This document shows positions 1,855 through 10,090 of a stretch of DNA of 31,591 nt, one piece after another. Source of the DNA: a virus. A model generated the notes under the pieces. That model ran no database searches and had not been told where the DNA came from. It worked only from the letters and a program-made list of their open reading frames with translations. Each line of letters begins with the position of its first letter. The stretch's first letter is position 1. Both the position numbers and the translations under genes were made by a program. The stretch lies in IMG/VR virus record IMGVR_UViG_3300032087_001284, positions 1 through 31,591 of that record. The stretch is one strand, 5' to 3'.

Positions 1855-2084
1855 ATCGAAACGCTGAAGAGGTACGCGAAACCTTGCGCGATCTTTTAGA
1901 AGCGTGTGAAGCTGGAGATGTAAGCGGAGCAATTATCGTGATCGAGCGTCAAGATGGGTTCGATTTGCAAATGCCTGGCACCTTTTCCACAGACCCAGAT
2001 AGCCTTGCGAGCATTATTGGACGCTTGCAAGTAGCGTCAAATGTTTTTGCCCATATGGTTTGGTCAGAAGAAGATGACGAGTAA
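1833..2084 (+). CDS. Hypothetical protein (83 aa)
   Basis: ATG 1833 is in frame within ORF-track 1659..2084, whose upstream part overlaps NinG. It has the coding look of an acidic small protein. Its end overlaps the next gene start by 11 nt. Confidence 0.5.
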   Translation: MGQVSILDRNAEEVRETLRDLLEACEAGDVSGAIIVIERQDGFDLQMPGTFSTDPDSLASIIGRLQVASNVFAHMVWSEEDDE

Positions 2085-3249
2085 AAGTGTCCCTGAGCAT
2101 TTAGAATATTGCAACACCGATTATCAGACACAGGTAATCGAAATGCACATCAGCGGGATGTCTCAAGCCGAGATTGCTAATCAACTGGGCAAAGAGCCTA
2201 GACGCATTTGTGAGGTTATCGGTAAGGTACACAAGAGAGCAAGTCGCAAGGGATTTGCACCCGATTACAATCTCAACAGACAGGTAGCGCCAGGATTTAC
2301 AACCAAGCGGGTCTCAACTGCTTACAACATGGACAACGAGATTGTCCTGCAATGGCACATTCAAGAGCCTGACCGAGAAAAACTAGAAGAACTGATAGCC
2401 GAATTCGTCGAAGGATTTAAAGATGAAGTCACCGGAATCCACGCTCCCACAGACGCGCCTACAGGCACTGATAACGATCTTATGGTTAGCTACATTATTG
2501 GGGATCATCACCTTGGGATGCTTGCTCACCACAGCGAGACGATGGGCGACGACTACGACGTTAAAATTAGCCAAACGCTTTTAGAAAATGCGATAGACCG
2601 ACTGGTAAGCTCTGCGCCAGCGGGAGAGGTTGGGGTGCTGGTTAATCTTGGCGATTTTATGCACATTAACGACAGCACAAGCTCAACGCCTAGCTCTAAA
2701 AACCTGCTGGATTCGGACGGCAGATACTCAAAGACCATTCGCGCAGCCAGCAACGTGATAAAGCGTACCGTTTTACGTATGCTTGAGAAGCATAATCACG
2801 TGTGGATCGTGAACGTAAGGGGAAATCATGACCCTGACGCTGCGCTTTGGTTAAATGAGGTTATGCGCCTGTACTTTGAGGAAGACCCAAGGGTCAAGGT
2901 ATTTGATAACGCTTCCAAGTTTGTTTGGTGGCAATGGGGCAAGAATCTAGTTGTGACCCATCATGGAGATCGGATTAAAATGTCTAATCTTCACGGATCA
3001 ATCGTTAGTAACTTGAGGAAAGAATGGGGCGAATCCGATCACACCTACGTGTGGACAGGTCACATCCACCACAAGAATCAGGAGGAATATGGGGGAGCAT
3101 TGTTCGAGTCTTGGAACATCCTAGCACCCGCAGACGCTTGGCACGCTGGCTCTGGCTATGCCAGTTCTCGGAGTATGACTTGCGTAATCCTCCACAAATC
3201 GTTCGGAGAGCAAGGAAGATTAAAGGCAAACATTCAGGAGTTAGTATGA
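2074..3249 (+). CDS. HTH domain fused to a calcineurin-like metallophosphoesterase (Mre11/SbcD-like motif set)
   Basis: The N-terminal ISGMSQAEIANQLGKEPRRICEVIGKVHKRA is HTH-like. The C-terminal half has ordered phosphoesterase motifs IGDHHLG, NLGDFMH, RGNHDP, THHGD and TGHIHH. ATG 2074 was chosen over 2041 because it removes most of the overlap with the upstream ORF. Confidence 0.65.
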   Translation: MTSKSVPEHLEYCNTDYQTQVIEMHISGMSQAEIANQLGKEPRRICEVIGKVHKRASRKGFAPDYNLNRQVAPGFTTKRVSTAYNMDNEIVLQWHIQEPDREKLEELIAEFVEGFKDEVTGIHAPTDAPTGTDNDLMVSYIIGDHHLGMLAHHSETMGDDYDVKISQTLLENAIDRLVSSAPAGEVGVLVNLGDFMHINDSTSSTPSSKNLLDSDGRYSKTIRAASNVIKRTVLRMLEKHNHVWIVNVRGNHDPDAALWLNEVMRLYFEEDPRVKVFDNASKFVWWQWGKNLVVTHHGDRIKMSNLHGSIVSNLRKEWGESDHTYVWTGHIHHKNQEEYGGALFESWNILAPADAWHAGSGYASSRSMTCVILHKSFGEQGRLKANIQELV

Positions 3250-3598: not shown

Positions 3599-3928
3599 TT
3601 AGTAGGTTTCATTTTCCTCTCCTAATGTTTCACGTGAAACGTTGTGGTAACTATCTCTGCGGCTGCGAGTTTGAAAGAAACCATCATGCTCGGGGTAGCA
3701 GATCATAAACTTTCTGGCGTAATGACTAATCCAACCGTCATCGATCTTGTAAGAGTCATCTTTGCCTGAGACCATCGTTTCCCATCTGACCCGATGAAAA
3801 ACAGCCTTGGCCGAATAGTAGCGTTTGTGGCGGGTAGCAATTAATGCGAAGTGCGCGAAAGTCGTAAAGATGTCTGGATTTTCACGGTCAAATTGCTCGA
3901 AATTCTCTTTGCTCCATTTCCCGTTCAT
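3599..3928 (-). CDS. Conserved-looking phage protein of unknown function, last gene of the methyltransferase operon
   Basis: ATG at 3928 forms an ATGA overlap with the MTase stop (3925-3927). The ORF track extends it to 3946. Sequence: WSKENFEQFDRENPDIFTTFAHFAL...VFHRVRWE...ISHYARKF. Confidence 0.6.
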   Translation of the reverse strand: MNGKWSKENFEQFDRENPDIFTTFAHFALIATRHKRYYSAKAVFHRVRWETMVSGKDDSYKIDDGWISHYARKFMICYPEHDGFFQTRSRRDSYHNVSRETLGEENETY

Positions 3929-4800
3929 CGGTTTTCTATCTCCCAAATTGCTTTTCCGATTTGCTCAACTACTTGAGGCACTACCGCATTGCCTAATTGT
4001 TTAAGTCTGTGTGACCTTCTGGGAACCCCATTAGCCACTCTACCCACGTTGGGTTCAGGCTTCCACCAGCTTGAGCTGCCAATGTCGGTGTATTGCGATT
4101 GTGTTCTGAAGGAGCGGCTGTCTCTTTGGCATTGTGAGCCGTTGGTGTAGGCCACATTTTCACTTGATCCTGCAACCGTATCTGTATCTTCTGACCACTT
4201 GCTCTTGTTGTCTTGCCTTCTAGTAATGCTTTCGGAGTCCCGCTTTGGCTCGCATTTGGAGTTCTCCACCATCCGCTGTTCATGCTTGGAGCCATTTGAT
4301 TCGCTGTCGCTGTTGGCGTGTGCAATAATCCAGACTCGATCCCTTCTGTGGTGAGCATCGACGGCACAAGCTGGAATAACAAACGGCCTTGTGGTGTAGC
4401 CCGCTGCTTCCAAGTCAATGAGCACTTCGTCGAGGCCCATATTGATGTGCCCAGCAACATTTTCTCCAATGACCCAATCGGGCCTGAGTTCTTGGATAAG
4501 CCTAAACATTTCAGGCCAGAGGTGACGGTCATCTTCTGCGCCACGCCGTTCTCCTGCAACGCTGAAGGGTTGGCAAGGGTATCCTCCGCAAATAAGTCCG
4601 ATGTCATGTATTCCATTATCTAGGAGCTCCTGTTTGTTTAGCGTTCTAACGTCAGAAAAAATAGGCACTTCAGGCCAATTTTTTTTTAACACTTTCTGCG
4701 CTTCTTTGTCGTATTCACAGAAAGCGGCTGTTTCAAATCCAGCAGCCTCCAGGCCTAAACTGAATCCACCAATACCAGAAAATAAGTCTAGCACCCTCAT
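3925..4800 (-). CDS. DNA (cytosine-5)-methyltransferase
   Basis: Motif I DLFSGIGGFS, IV GGYPCQPFS, VI IGENV, VIII HHRRDRVWI, X LGNAVVPQ. The segment between VIII and X is hydrophilic and low-complexity. See the finding on the nested +1 ORF. Confidence 0.85.
   Translation of the reverse strand: MRVLDLFSGIGGFSLGLEAAGFETAAFCEYDKEAQKVLKKNWPEVPIFSDVRTLNKQELLDNGIHDIGLICGGYPCQPFSVAGERRGAEDDRHLWPEMFRLIQELRPDWVIGENVAGHINMGLDEVLIDLEAAGYTTRPFVIPACAVDAHHRRDRVWIIAHANSDSESNGSKHEQRMVENSKCEPKRDSESITRRQDNKSKWSEDTDTVAGSSENVAYTNGSQCQRDSRSFRTQSQYTDIGSSSWWKPEPNVGRVANGVPRRSHRLKQLGNAVVPQVVEQIGKAIWEIENR
3993..4616 (-). CDS. Nested +1-frame ORF inside the methyltransferase gene (TRD / motif-IX-like translation)
   Basis: 207 codons open on the same strand, entirely within 3925..4800. 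The translation contains KMTVTSGLKC, CSLTWKQRATPQGRLLFQLVPS, GLLHTPTA, MWPTPTA and LNPTWVEWLMGFPEGHT. I recall these strings from long phage C5-MTases. Whether and how it is expressed is unknown. Confidence 0.45.
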   Translation of the reverse strand: MEYMTSDLFAEDTLANPSALQENGVAQKMTVTSGLKCLGLSKNSGPIGSLEKMLLGTSIWASTKCSLTWKQRATPQGRLLFQLVPSMLTTEGIESGLLHTPTATANQMAPSMNSGWWRTPNASQSGTPKALLEGKTTRASGQKIQIRLQDQVKMWPTPTAHNAKETAAPSEHNRNTPTLAAQAGGSLNPTWVEWLMGFPEGHTDLNN

Positions 4801-5972: not shown

Positions 5973-6494
5973 ATGCAAACCTTAGAGGTCAAATATTTAT
6001 CAGTCGATGAGTTGCTGCCATACGACAAAAACTCACGCACACATAGTGATTCACAAATACTGCAAATTGAAAAAAGTATCAAAGAATTTGGGTTTACGAA
6101 TCCATTATTGATCACAGAAAATAATGAGATAATTGCAGGGCATGGTCGGTTATCAGCAGCTAAAAATCTAGGACTAGATGCAATACCAACTATAGTTCTA
6201 TCTAATCTCACTGAAACGCAACAGCGAGCTTATGTCATCGCTGACAATCAATTAGCGTTAAACTCAGGTTGGGATATATCCTTGTTAAGTGAAGAGCTGA
6301 CAATGCTTGATGAAGTAGGTCTTGATATTTCACTTTTAGGTTTTGACGATAATGAAATTGCAGAACTTATGGGAATTTCACCATATTTTGAGCCAGCAAC
6401 AGAAAAAGAACAAGGTAAGTTGGACGAGTTAGATCCTAAGTGGATCGATTGCCCTCATTGCGGCAAAGAATTTGATTTGCGAAAGCATGGGTAA
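5973..6494 (+). CDS. ParB-like nuclease-domain protein with a C-terminal CxxC tail
   Basis: Strong RBS GAGGAGGGGG. LLPYDKNSRTHSDSQILQIEKSIKEFGFTNPLLI...IIAGHGRLSAAKNLGLDAIP is a ParB/Srx-type domain. It is followed by ADNQLALNSGWD...LGFDDNEIAEL and then CPHCGKEF. Confidence 0.75.
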   Translation: MQTLEVKYLSVDELLPYDKNSRTHSDSQILQIEKSIKEFGFTNPLLITENNEIIAGHGRLSAAKNLGLDAIPTIVLSNLTETQQRAYVIADNQLALNSGWDISLLSEELTMLDEVGLDISLLGFDDNEIAELMGISPYFEPATEKEQGKLDELDPKWIDCPHCGKEFDLRKHG

Positions 6495-7131
6495 AGTCAA
6501 TCTGAAAATAGACTGGGCAAGCCATCAAGCAGCTAAATATGCGTGCGAGAATTGGCATTATAGTAAAAGCACGCCCGTGCCGCCTTTAGTAAAAATAGGC
6601 GTTTGGGAAGATAAAAAATTCGTGGGTGTATTGATATTCAGTCGAGGAGCAAGTAGCAATTTATTAAAGCCATACAATTTGAAACAAACGGAGGGTTGCG
6701 AACTCACAAGAATAGCTCTGTCAAGTCACAAAACAAACGTTTCAAGAATTGTGAAAGTCGCAATCGGATTTTTGAAGAAAAAGAGCCCTGCACTGCGGCT
6801 AATAGTTTCATTCGCTGATCCGCAATACGGGCATCACGGCGGCATTTATCAAGCTGGTAATTGGATCTATGCGGGCAAAACATCAAAAGGGAAAGAGTTT
6901 TGGTTGAATGGTAAGAGGCTGCATTCAAGACAAGTCTCAGAAAAAGGTTGGAATATACAACAAGGCATGAAAAGAAAAACCGCAAAACCGTCTGAATGTG
7001 AAATAATCGAAACTGAAGGAAAACATCGATACCTTATGCCGCTGGACAAAAAGATAAAAAAGCAAATAATGTGCTTATCACAACCGTACCCAAAGCGGGC
7101 AAAAGAAGCAGGCGCTGCAGTACCCCTGTAG
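6487..7131 (+). CDS. GNAT-like acyltransferase, Mom-like DNA-modification family candidate
   Basis: NWHYSKSTPVPPL..IGVWEDKKFVGVLIFSRG...CELTRIAL...LRLIVSFADPQYGHHGGIYQAGNWIYAGKT. I recall this motif pattern for the acyltransferase family annotated as Mom-type adenine methylcarbamoylation proteins. This is not verified. ATG 6487 overlaps the ParB-like gene end by 8 nt; the ORF-track start is 6472. Confidence 0.45.
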   Translation: MGKVNLKIDWASHQAAKYACENWHYSKSTPVPPLVKIGVWEDKKFVGVLIFSRGASSNLLKPYNLKQTEGCELTRIALSSHKTNVSRIVKVAIGFLKKKSPALRLIVSFADPQYGHHGGIYQAGNWIYAGKTSKGKEFWLNGKRLHSRQVSEKGWNIQQGMKRKTAKPSECEIIETEGKHRYLMPLDKKIKKQIMCLSQPYPKRAKEAGAAVPL

Positions 7132-7174: not shown

Positions 7175-7528
7175 ATGGCCAGACCTCTGAAAGAAATAGA
7201 TTGGCAACAAGTAAATCAAATGTGCGCTATTCACTGTACAGGTGAAGAGCAAGCAGCAGTTCTTGGCATCGATTACGATACCTTGAATTCAGCCTGTAAG
7301 CGTGAACATAAAATGAGTTTTTCGGACTATTTCAAGCAAAAGGCCAGCCACGGCAAAATGAGCCTGAGACGGAAGCAGTATACGACCGCGATGGACGGAA
7401 ATACGACTATGCTAGTATGGCTCGGAAAAAACTGGTTAGGACAGCGGGATCAGCCAGAATCGGAGCCTGTTGATCTACAGCCCATAGTTATACAGAGAGC
7501 CGATGAAGCTGACCAAACCCCAAGATGA
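7175..7528 (+). CDS. terS: Terminase small subunit
   Basis: HTH-like N-terminus (QMCAIHCTGEEQAAVLGIDYDTL), then SLRRKQYTTAMDGNTTMLVWLGKNWLGQRD, a typical TerS signature. It lies directly upstream of and overlaps TerL. Confidence 0.75.
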   Translation: MARPLKEIDWQQVNQMCAIHCTGEEQAAVLGIDYDTLNSACKREHKMSFSDYFKQKASHGKMSLRRKQYTTAMDGNTTMLVWLGKNWLGQRDQPESEPVDLQPIVIQRADEADQTPR

Positions 7529-8717
7529 CATCTTCTTCAATGACTCGCGGTTCAGGGTCGTTGTAGCGGGTCGTCGATTTGGTAAAACCTTCTTATCAAC
7601 CTATGAGCTGCTGAAGCACGCGCTGCAAGGCAAGTCTCAGAATTGTTGGTATGTTGCCCCTACGTATAAGGCAGCGAAAGAAATAGCGTGGAACATGCTT
7701 ATTGACGCTATACCTGACGGTTACATGACCAAGAAAAACGAGACAGCGTTGAGCATCGATTTGCGTAACGGCTCAAGCATAGCCCTCAAGGGCGCAGAAA
7801 AGCCCGACAATCTGCGAGGACGGGCGCTAGATTTTTGCGTATTGGATGAGTTTGCTGATATGCGTCCTGAAGCGTGGCATGAAGTGTTGCGGCCATCATT
7901 ATCTGACAGGCGCGGAAACGCGTTATTTATTGGCACACCTAAAGGCAGAAACCACTTCTACGACCTGTGGACGAGGGGCGTAGACGGCCAAGAATCATGG
8001 GAAGCCTTCCAATATACGACGATTGATGGCGGCAACGTTGACCCTGACGAGATAAGAGCAGCCAAAAACGACCTTGACGAAAGAACATTTCAGCAAGAAT
8101 ACGAGGCTCGATTCGTCAATTACAGCGGGATTATCTATTACGCATTTAGCCGCGAGCAATCAGTCAAACCGTATAATGCCTCAGTCGATGAGCTACATAT
8201 CGGTATGGATTTCAACGTCGACCCCATGTCGGCAGTTGTCTGCGTTAGGAATGGCGGCACGTTGCACGCCATAGACGAGATCGTAATGTATGGCTCAAAC
8301 ACCGATGAGATGGTGGACGAAATCAGGCAAAGGTATAGGCAGAACGCGATCACGATATATCCTGATCCCGCATCTGCCCAGCGGAAGACTTCAGCCGGTA
8401 GTCGGACCGACTTAAACATATTACAAAACGCAGGGTTTCGGGTTAAAGTACGCAGTAAGCATCCTGCAATACGTGATAGGATAAACAGTGTCAACAGCCG
8501 ACTGTTATCTAGTCAGCAACAACGGCGGTTATTTGTTACGCCAAACTGTAAAAACGTAATCAACAGCTTGGAGCGTCAAACGTACAAAGAAGGCACCAGC
8601 CAGCCAAATAAGGATGACGGGTTCGATCACATGAATGATGCACTCGGCTACTTAATCGAATATATGTTCCCCATTCGCAAGGAACATGAAACGCCACAGC
8701 CTACGAGGTGGACTTAA
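7503..8717 (+). CDS. terL: Terminase large subunit
   Basis: Walker A VVAGRRFGKT, Walker B-like FCVLDEFADM, a C-terminal nuclease-like region (IGMDFN...DHMNDALGY), and its position between TerS and the portal gene. Confidence 0.85.
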   Translation: MKLTKPQDDIFFNDSRFRVVVAGRRFGKTFLSTYELLKHALQGKSQNCWYVAPTYKAAKEIAWNMLIDAIPDGYMTKKNETALSIDLRNGSSIALKGAEKPDNLRGRALDFCVLDEFADMRPEAWHEVLRPSLSDRRGNALFIGTPKGRNHFYDLWTRGVDGQESWEAFQYTTIDGGNVDPDEIRAAKNDLDERTFQQEYEARFVNYSGIIYYAFSREQSVKPYNASVDELHIGMDFNVDPMSAVVCVRNGGTLHAIDEIVMYGSNTDEMVDEIRQRYRQNAITIYPDPASAQRKTSAGSRTDLNILQNAGFRVKVRSKHPAIRDRINSVNSRLLSSQQQRRLFVTPNCKNVINSLERQTYKEGTSQPNKDDGFDHMNDALGYLIEYMFPIRKEHETPQPTRWT

Positions 8718-10090
8718 TGCGATTTTTAGAATATCAGCACCCCGATTATGACATACACGAGCAACGGTGGGAGTTATACCTTCGCTCATATCTAGGGGGC
8801 GAGGATTATCAGAACGGGTCATATCTGACCGCATATCTTAACGAATCAAAAGACGAATACAGCAGAAGGGTTGCATTGACTCCTGTTGATAACCACTGTC
8901 GCAATATTGTGCATATATATTCGTCGTTTTTGTGGAGGGTTCCACCTGTCCGCAATTTTAACGGCCTGACTAACAACCCCGCGCTGGAGTCATTCGTTGA
9001 CGATGCCGATCTTGATGGAATGAGCTTTAACAGCTTTATGAAGCAAGCACAGATCTGGTCATCTGTTTATGGGCATGTATGGATTTTGGTTGATAAGCCG
9101 CAGAGCAATGCACAGACACGCGCAGAAGAGCTAGATCAAGATATTCGGCCCTATGTGACCTTATTCACGCCTGAAAATGTATTTGACTGGAAATATGAGC
9201 GCACACCTAGCGGACGATTTGAGCTGACCTATCTGAAGTTAAGGGAATCAATCGACAGGGAAGACGCAACCACAACGGTTAGCTATTACAGGTTGTGGCG
9301 CAAAGATATCATCGAGTATTGGAAAGACGACGGTCACGCAGAAACCAAGATCGAAGAGATACCCAATCCGCTGGGCAAGATCCCTGCGGCATTTCTACCC
9401 GCAGCGCGTAGCGTTGTTAGAGGGATTGGTATAAGTGATCTAAGCGACGTTGCGCTAATGCAAAAAGCAATTTACCAAGAGCTTAGTGAGATCGAGCAGC
9501 TTATCAGGATCAGCAATCACCCTTCGTTGGTTAAGACCTACGACGCAGACGCGAGTGCTGGGGCAGGATCGGTTATTAACTTGTCTGAGGATAGCGACCC
9601 TGGCTTGAAACCTTTCCTATTACAACCTAGCGGTCAGAATATCGACTCAATCAGAGCAGCAATTAAGGATAAGGTCGAAGCGATCAACAAGATGGCGCAC
9701 ATGGGTGCGGTTAGGGGGACTGAAGCACTAACCCAATCAGGCGTAGCAATGCAGACCGAGTTTCAGATGCTTAACGCCAAGCTATCAGAAAAAGCCGATT
9801 TGCTTGAACTTGCCGAGGAGCACATCTGGGGTTATTTCTGCAACTGGCTAGGAATTACGCCTGACGTTGAGGTTTTCTACCCTGATGCTTTTGATCTGCG
9901 CGATTACGAGAAAGAGTTAATATTCTTGCAGCAAGTCAGAGCCAGCGGCGTGCCTTCTACCACTATGCAGCGCGAAGTTGATAAACAGATCGCTGACTTA
10001 GTATTAGACGATGAGAAGCTGTCAGAAGCACACAAAGAGATCGAAGCACAAACCCGCGTCATAGGACAGTTTCCGATACAGGCTGAATAA
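8717..10090 (+). CDS. Portal protein
   Basis: About 457 aa immediately after TerL. TAATG overlap at 8715-8719; the ORF track uses GTG 8708. Called from size, position and composition. Confidence 0.7.
   Translation: MRFLEYQHPDYDIHEQRWELYLRSYLGGEDYQNGSYLTAYLNESKDEYSRRVALTPVDNHCRNIVHIYSSFLWRVPPVRNFNGLTNNPALESFVDDADLDGMSFNSFMKQAQIWSSVYGHVWILVDKPQSNAQTRAEELDQDIRPYVTLFTPENVFDWKYERTPSGRFELTYLKLRESIDREDATTTVSYYRLWRKDIIEYWKDDGHAETKIEEIPNPLGKIPAAFLPAARSVVRGIGISDLSDVALMQKAIYQELSEIEQLIRISNHPSLVKTYDADASAGAGSVINLSEDSDPGLKPFLLQPSGQNIDSIRAAIKDKVEAINKMAHMGAVRGTEALTQSGVAMQTEFQMLNAKLSEKADLLELAEEHIWGYFCNWLGITPDVEVFYPDAFDLRDYEKELIFLQQVRASGVPSTTMQREVDKQIADLVLDDEKLSEAHKEIEAQTRVIGQFPIQAE

Follow-up and report, generated by a model that had tools for sequence, protein, structure and literature searches.

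Cytosine-5 DNA methyltransferases (C5-MTases) make all of their specific DNA contacts through the small domain (PMC3404938), and enzymes of this class made of two chains have been described. The beta chain of M.EcoHK31I is encoded wholly inside the alpha gene in another frame (Lee, Kam & Shaw 1995, as recounted in PMC2836561 and PMC3404938); alpha carries motifs I to VIII, motif X and a predicted target recognition domain (TRD), beta carries motif IX, and both chains are needed in vitro and in vivo (PMC2836561, PMC3404938). Methylation is lost when the internal beta start codons are silently removed, and deleting 42 to 70 residues from the beta N terminus weakens the alpha-beta association (PMC2836561). 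Here, we report the analysis of a C5-MTase gene with a wholly nested second open reading frame (ORF) in a 31,591-nucleotide (nt) stretch of viral DNA (IMG/VR record IMGVR_UViG_3300032087_001284, positions 1 to 31,591; hereafter, the window). With good confidence, we read the locus as encoding a two-polypeptide alpha/beta C5-MTase of the M.EcoHK31I type with two functional products. The architecture has been known since 1995 from M.EcoHK31I; what is added here is its deep conservation, its extreme spread and its absence from domain databases. The original prediction of dual coding at this locus had overlooked that experimentally documented precedent (PMC2836561, PMC3404938).

Three further systems bear on the locus. 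M.AquI is a natural two-subunit C5-MTase with overlapping ORFs, split in the variable region and described as having motifs I to VIII on one chain and IX and X on the other (Karreman & de Waard 1990, as recounted in PMC3404938). Fragment complementation has been described for the monomeric C5-MTases M.HhaI, M.BspRI, M.BsuRI and M.SssI (PMC3404938). Outside the methylases, the Rz/Rz1 spanin genes of phage lambda have the second gene embedded in the +1 frame of the first with its own start, and their products form one complex (PMC3556154).

Two coding frames at one locus

The ORF list places the outer ORF (alpha) at 3925..4800 on the minus strand (291 amino acids [aa]) and the nested ORF (beta) wholly within it at 3993..4616 on the same strand (207 aa), and the offset, (4800-4616) mod 3 = 1, puts beta in the +1 frame relative to alpha, as originally predicted. 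All five C5 motifs named for the outer frame were located, in canonical order on the minus strand: I (FxGxG; FSGIGG, 4765-4782), IV (PCQ; GGYPCQPFS, 4561-4587), VI (ENV; GENV, 4456-4467), VIII (RxR; HRRDRVWIIAHA, 4315-4350) and X (GNxV; LGNAVVPQ, 3973-3996). The nested ORF opens with an ATG at 4616..4614, with a Shine-Dalgarno-like AGGAG (4627..4631, minus strand) 10 nt 5' of it, and ends with a TAG at 3995..3993, inside the first two codons of motif X. The overlap is about 620 nt long, and about 300 nt of it is selected in both frames.

Along the minus strand, the gene was divided into region A, read in the outer frame only (4617..4800; motifs I to III, outer codons 1 to 61); region B, dual-coded, with outer motifs IV to VIII over the nested N-terminal part (4315..4616); region C, with a hydrophilic, disordered outer linker over conserved nested boxes (4069..4314); a doubly conserved segment (3997..4068); and region D, 3' of the nested stop. 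The nested sequences in region B include QKMTVTSGLK, GSLEKMLL and LTWK..RLLFQLVPS. They are followed by the boxes GLLHTPTA (4308-4331), WWRTPNAS (4248-4271) and MWPTPTAHNAK (4125-4157) and by a motif-IX-like element at 4002-4058.

For comparison, 166 loci were fetched from phages, metagenomes and bacterial genomes, with nested-frame identities of 30 to 96%. The nested ORF lay inside an open outer frame (-1 relative to the nested one) with C5 motifs in 160 of the 166 (84/86 viral and phage loci; 76/80 bacterial-genome loci), and the third frame in those loci had stops about every 10 to 90 codons. Chance openness was estimated by permutation of synonymous codons in 82 loci. The median probability per locus was 0.005 for a nested frame free of stops over motifs IV to VIII and 0.0125 for an outer frame free of stops over the interval from VIII to X; both frames were open in 82/82 loci tested.

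Divergence by codon position was calculated for 66 pairs among 12 close relatives and is given for outer positions 1/2/3. Regions A (0.16/0.09/0.51) and D (0.23/0.20/0.49) had the usual single-gene pattern. In region B (0.12/0.054/0.17), outer position 3, which is nested position 2, was suppressed threefold (Fisher p, 1e-4 to 1e-7 in five pairs), so both frames are constrained there. Region C (0.376/0.195/0.189) diverged fastest at outer position 1, the nested wobble position; the nested frame is therefore constrained in its amino acids and the outer frame simply open, with identity among the close relatives at 0.46 in the outer frame versus 0.65 in the nested frame. The selected frame shifts along the gene from outer, to both, to nested with the outer kept open, and back to outer, and the alpha linker is held stop-free but unconstrained at the amino-acid level. 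Both are real coding frames under selection: nested-frame homologues exist, the +1 frame is open in them, and outer synonymous variation is suppressed, all as genuine dual coding had led one to expect. Every test made supports dual coding, and none of the three conditions named with the prediction as refuting it was borne out. The locus is an unusually clean, deeply conserved case of long same-strand dual coding in a DNA phage.

An antisense ORF (4318..4623, plus strand, 101 aa) lies over region B, with a 146-aa counterpart in locus L005. It was rejected as a third gene because a run of at least 90 aa is present in just 37 of 83 loci, and it probably arises incidentally from the double constraint on the opposite strand.

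Just before motif X, the bases of the doubly conserved segment are read as WWKPEPNVGRVANGVPRRSHRLKQ in the outer frame and as the motif-IX-like LNPTWVEWLMGFPEGHTDL in the nested frame. In 71 of 78 loci, one run of bases encodes both corresponding consensuses, PxVGRVAxGVPxRxxRLKxLGNAVVP in the outer frame and LNPxWVEWLMGFPxGxTDL in the nested frame, and in 71/78 the nested element precedes the GN of motif X by exactly 15 codons, the canonical place of motif IX. The outer residue after RVA is restricted to N, H, D or Y, the options left by the third base of an invariant nested Leu; likewise, nested GWT pairs with outer RVDR and nested GHT with outer RSHR. The shared bases first noticed in the window are as described, outer VGRVANG (4027-4047) overlapping nested WVEWLMG (4026-4046) and, further upstream, outer RVWIIAHA (4315-4338) overlapping nested GLLHTPTA. 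It had also been proposed that two C-terminal consensuses of phage enzymes, apparently of different families, are frame-shifted readings of one template; their co-encoding stands, but they are products of one gene and not two enzyme families.

A segment of about 15 to 22 codons is duplicated in tandem in at least seven scored loci (L033, L001/L002, L032, L054, L063 and L080, a set that takes in Tadhana/Redbud), and apparently also in L025, L026, L049 and L051. In the first copy, the nested motif is retained and the outer reading degenerates (e.g., to PGLGGVADGLPHWLDEP); the second copy, located after the intact nested motif or otherwise outside it, retains the outer motif (e.g., PRIATGVKDRVNRLKCLGNAV). 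Since each copy keeps one reading, both readings are taken to be functional, and the duplication looks like an overlap conflict resolved by duplication. These variants, with one segment copy per frame, are useful for studying how overprinted genes originate and are resolved.

The two predicted proteins and their relatives

PF00145 was searched with each frame separately. The outer protein matched with an E value of 5.9e-51, the main stretch covering profile positions 1-215 of 324, and its fragment from motif VIII to the end matched profile positions 299-322 only (motif X). It also scored 135 bits against TIGR00675 (cut-off, 100.65) and belongs to PHROG phrog_363. The 82 residues after motif VIII (163-244) are 80% S, D, E, N, Q, R, K, T or G. 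An AlphaFold model built with 63 homologues gave predicted local distance difference test (pLDDT) values of mostly about 90 for residues 1-164, except in short loops such as 76-91, values of 26 to 38 for residues 165-270, and a confident C-terminal helix (273-290) that corresponds to motif X. Foldseek returned M.HhaI and M.HaeIII as the best matches to this model, over about 168 columns, the large domain only. By Pfam coverage, AlphaFold, composition and divergence, the outer chain has neither a folded variable region (TRD) nor a motif IX between VIII and X, in line with the hydrophilic, TRD-less stretch seen there at the outset. With a modeled large domain followed by disorder at 165-270, alpha would be a catalytic domain with a long tether in the usual place of the small domain.

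The nested protein had no match in Pfam, including PF00145, and none in NCBIfam; in PHROG it matched phrog_1008, labelled "DNA methyltransferase" (E value, 1.4e-33). The search for nested-frame homologues returned thousands: matches were found in 89 phage GenBank records, in 3337 proteins of a 90%-identity clustered database, in at least 592 IMG/VR contigs and, across many phyla, at no fewer than 581 places in GTDB species-representative genomes. At E values of ≤1e-3, the family comprises 40,441 representatives of 50%-identity clusters, 23,876 of these at ≤1e-10. Conserved features are S33-G34, W69, L83, the xPTPxA boxes and a near-invariant G-x-L-N-P-x-W-V-E-W-L-M-G-F/Y-P-x-G-x-T-D/E-L; the window beta has three boxes followed by LNPxWVEWLMGFPxGxTDL. 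The pattern LNPxWVEWLMGFPxGHT resembles motif IX of the plant DRM methylase (LEPDEVEMLLGFPKNHT), a weak match with an E value of 1.5; it also resembles the DNMT3-type GFPxxYTD. Among beta homologues, the number of xPTPxA(x)D boxes ranges from 1 to about 7 (e.g., P0117, P0114 and P0264) and the length from about 170 to more than 400 aa; tandem recognition modules may be one explanation.

The window phage has no close relative in phage GenBank or GTDB genomes (best nested identity, 48%), and a single 80-nt match was all that megablast of the region found among phages. More distant phages hold the same elements in other arrangements. In the Mycobacterium phage JoongJeon (locus L087, 1135-2230), gene 78 has motifs I to VIII and stops directly after VIII, and gene 77, overlapping in the +1 frame, reads without a change of frame through three LLPTPxAxD boxes, LNAAFSEWMMGWEEGW and motif X (IGNGVVVQQ); the window nested protein aligns collinearly with gp77. 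Hamulus (Mycobacterium phage; L090, 1138-2598) gp68 has I to VIII, five boxes, IX and X in a single frame and also retains a +1 ORF over motifs VI to VIII and two boxes. Trax (Gordonia phage; L089, 1138-2001) gp78 has IX and X in frame 0 and one box in the +1 frame. The expectation that long single-chain enzymes carry the boxes in frame thus holds for some relatives, such as Hamulus gp68, but not for all.

The embedded layout of the window was found in Mycobacterium phage Hades (L088, 750-1463), in Rhizobium phage RHph_N2 (L091, 1138-2277), in Escherichia coli phage K1H (L086, 597-1421), which has two nested "DNA methyltransferase" coding sequences (CDSs), and in Paenibacillus larvae Fernvirus phages, where the second frame is annotated as "g50 internal gene" or as a second methyltransferase CDS. 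The +1 ORFs of Hades, Hamulus, Trax and RHph_N2 are unannotated in GenBank. A literature search found no paper describing a nested methylase gene layout in phages; P. larvae phage papers list two "DNA-cytosine methyltransferase" gene products with no comment.

JoongJeon, Hamulus, Trax and the phages with the embedded layout have in common the +1 switch after motif VIII; the return to frame 0 varies: some have it after two boxes or one, some after motif IX, and some lack it. L086 to L091 appear to form an architecture series of one enzyme family, from embedded through overlapped to nearly fused. The JoongJeon gp78/gp77 pair has the M.AquI layout. In both M.AquI and JoongJeon, motif X is on beta and the alpha ORF ends after VIII, whereas in the window alpha regains X and beta is fully embedded. 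The Rz/Rz1 genes resemble the window family in that related phages show embedded, overlapped, separated or fused architectures; they differ in function (outer-membrane disruption), their proteins are unrelated, and neither product is a fragment of a single-chain enzyme.

A probable two-chain enzyme and its alternatives

As a C5-MTase of the M.EcoHK31I type, the locus would work as follows. Ribosomes starting at 4800 would make alpha, a large catalytic domain (I to VIII plus the motif X helix) whose parts would be joined by a hydrophilic, disordered linker of about 105 residues, the -1 reading of the beta gene. Independent initiation at the AGGAG-N10-ATG (4616) would yield beta. The N-terminal 95 or so residues of beta, overprinted on alpha motifs IV to VIII, would probably bind alpha; the C-terminal 110 or so (xPTPxA boxes and IX-like helix) would form a small target-recognition domain that has no counterpart in alpha. 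Alpha and beta would together form the active complex, an orphan methylase whose substrate would be the DNA of the phage or of the host.

That beta supplies target recognition is held with somewhat less confidence than that there are two functional products. We infer this role, the physical association of the chains and the need of both for activity from the M.EcoHK31I analogy and from the homology of beta to JoongJeon gp77, which has motif X in frame. The part played by the M.EcoHK31I beta N terminus in association would explain the selection on the overprinted N-terminal part of the window beta. The physical principle assumed for the window enzyme is that of fragment complementation; the complementation splits are artificial and their halves collinear, whereas here the TRD and IX would be on one chain and the flanking I to VIII and X on the other.

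By its published description, M.EcoHK31I is like the window in having an alpha with I to VIII and X and a beta embedded in alpha. It is a restriction-modification enzyme, and the window gene appears to be a phage orphan, since no restriction nuclease was identified beside it. A tblastn search of plasmids for M.EcoHK31I-like genes gave no enterobacterial match; the matches were in Bacillus, Paenibacillus, Bacteroides, Lacticaseibacillus and Leptospira plasmids only.

Several points weigh against this interpretation. The alpha/beta enzyme at this locus is predicted from sequence, and the likeness to M.EcoHK31I is one of architecture, drawn from descriptions and not from sequence. M.EcoHK31I has its predicted TRD in alpha, whereas the conserved variable-region sequence of the window (the PTP boxes) is in beta. 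Modeled alone with a 78-sequence alignment, beta gave a poor AlphaFold result (mean pLDDT, 56; predicted template modeling score, 0.23) in which the sole predicted elements were a hairpin at 65-87 (LTWK...RLLFQL) and short helices. Motif IX was assigned by pattern and position, and its statistics are weak: splicing the nested sequence to the outer C terminus widened PF00145 coverage from 299-322 to 218-322 with a gain of 3 bits, and the profile of this spliced fragment matched, among PDB sequences, DRM motif IX together with unrelated EspG3 proteins, all at E values of about 1.5. The full chimera (alpha I to VIII, beta, alpha X) scored 167.2 bits against PF00145 versus 174.3 for the outer protein alone. 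In region B, the strongly conserved motifs of alpha must account for some of the conservation seen in beta.

Some of these weaknesses would suit a nested gene unrelated to methylation, such as a regulator or an anti-defence gene, overprinted on an outer protein that works alone as a TRD-less or low-specificity methylase. The absence of a Pfam or NCBIfam domain, the poor AlphaFold model and the weak motif IX statistics all fit such a gene, yet its family was seen solely inside or overlapping C5-MTase genes. The JoongJeon homologue, moreover, has motif X in frame beside a partner ORF that stops right after VIII, Hamulus has the boxes and the IX-like motif in frame with I to VIII and X, and the outer protein would be left without the folded small domain, which makes the specific DNA contacts in C5-MTases (PMC3404938). 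We consider this explanation unlikely.

Less likely still is a programmed double frameshift, +1 after VIII and -1 before X, that would assemble I to VIII, TRD/IX and X into one canonical chain, as had been suggested under the name of recoding. The spliced ...GFPEGHTDL-KQLGNAVVPQ has typical IX-to-X spacing, the wider PF00145 coverage of the spliced C-terminal fragment is of the kind such a chain would give, and single-frame relatives such as Hamulus gp68 are known. But over about 95 codons before motif VIII, upstream of any plausible shift point, the nested frame stays open and is held by purifying selection, and the outer frame is stop-free through about 110 codons that would go unread. Of 86 loci, just 3 had canonical -1 slippery heptamers near the nested stop and just 4 had homopolymer runs near motif VIII. 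The Pfam scan lends no weight to the canonical single-chain enzyme, as the chimera gains nothing over the outer protein, and the M.EcoHK31I precedent consists of two separate polypeptides.

Beta has putative initiation signals of its own. A GGAG, GAGG or AGGA core lies at -17 to -5 of the nested ATG, TTG or GTG in 73 of 86 loci, against a background of 11.8% in the same genes, and in most loci the nested open stretch starts at the same site, just 5' of motif IV, with a minority reaching further upstream. Together with the rarity of slippery sites and the selection upstream of any shift, the ribosome-binding signal and start favour independent internal initiation over recoding. In loci of the K1H, L029, L058 and P0241 type, the nested frame is open nearly from the alpha start. 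A run of nine A residues on the coding strand of the window (T9 on the plus strand; 4679-4687), in alpha codons 38 to 41 (VLKKNW), lies upstream of the nested start; a slip there cannot fuse alpha to beta because of a TAG two codons before the nested ATG, and the run is not kept in relatives, judged from protein alignments.

Paired indel errors, a decaying gene or a compositional bias that leaves two frames open, to which a few database fusions of the alpha N terminus to beta of indel type (P0009, P0070 and P0291) might point, are refuted by comparison and are the least probable explanation, since the layout is kept in 160/166 independent, highly diverged loci, the third frame is full of stops, the permutation probabilities are 0.005 and 0.0125 per locus, and the GC content of the window is about 45%.

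With the two-chain enzyme as the preferred explanation, a broader one is put forward tentatively, as quite possible and with confidence falling a little short of the balance: a very large clade of C5-MTases, carried by phages and prophages and spanning phyla, may have the M.EcoHK31I layout as its norm and form a "frame-mosaic" gene family in which both frames are always translated and modules can move between alpha and beta by simple indels. Modules were seen in four arrangements: Hamulus has the boxes, IX and X together in the alpha frame; Trax has IX and X in alpha but one box in beta; the window has the boxes and IX in beta and motif X in alpha; and JoongJeon has all of these in beta. In such a family, the alpha pre-X motif GRVAxGVPxRVDRLK would at first have been what the bases coding for motif IX spell in the -1 frame, and would have become functional later; its function is suggested by its being kept on its own after tandem duplication. 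Were this so, many phage "orphan Dcm" annotations would cover half the enzyme.

Annotation and genomic context

Gene callers give the outer or the nested ORF, rarely both, and the nested family is without a Pfam or NCBIfam model. The annotation of this gene family is systematically half-complete, and for many cytosine methylases of phages and prophages it probably shows a single, incomplete protein. These orphan methylases matter for restriction evasion and for the interpretation of methylomes, and their specificity can be predicted or engineered only once the DNA-reading chain is known. For L004 and L005, the gene caller reported the nested ORF alone and left the outer ORF uncalled; other records have the outer ORF alone. 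In P0009, P0070, P0291 and P0067, the alpha N terminus (motif I) runs in frame into beta and motif IV is skipped; these fusions could be assembly indels or natural frameshift variants. An indel in a dual-coded gene gives a long fused ORF and not a truncation, so gene callers accept such fusions.

The window is a tailed-phage genome, with genes for a DNA-repair exonuclease (2041-3249), a large terminase (7503-8717) and a portal (8708-10090). A Mom-like DNA modification protein (6472-7131, plus strand; phrog_1384; E value, 8.9e-58) is encoded 1.7 kb from the methylase, and the phage may carry two different DNA-modification functions. The methylase lies in a short minus-strand block and has ATGA stop/start overlaps with both neighbours: the alpha ATG (4800..4798) shares bases with the stop (4799..4797) of a 58-aa ORF upstream, and at the other end the alpha stop (3927..3925) shares bases with an ATG (3928..3926), the first codon of MNGKWSKENF.... 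The downstream gene (phrog_13625) likely starts at 3928 and not at the TTG at 3946 given by the program-made ORF list, and the ATGA overlaps suggest translational coupling along the minus-strand block.

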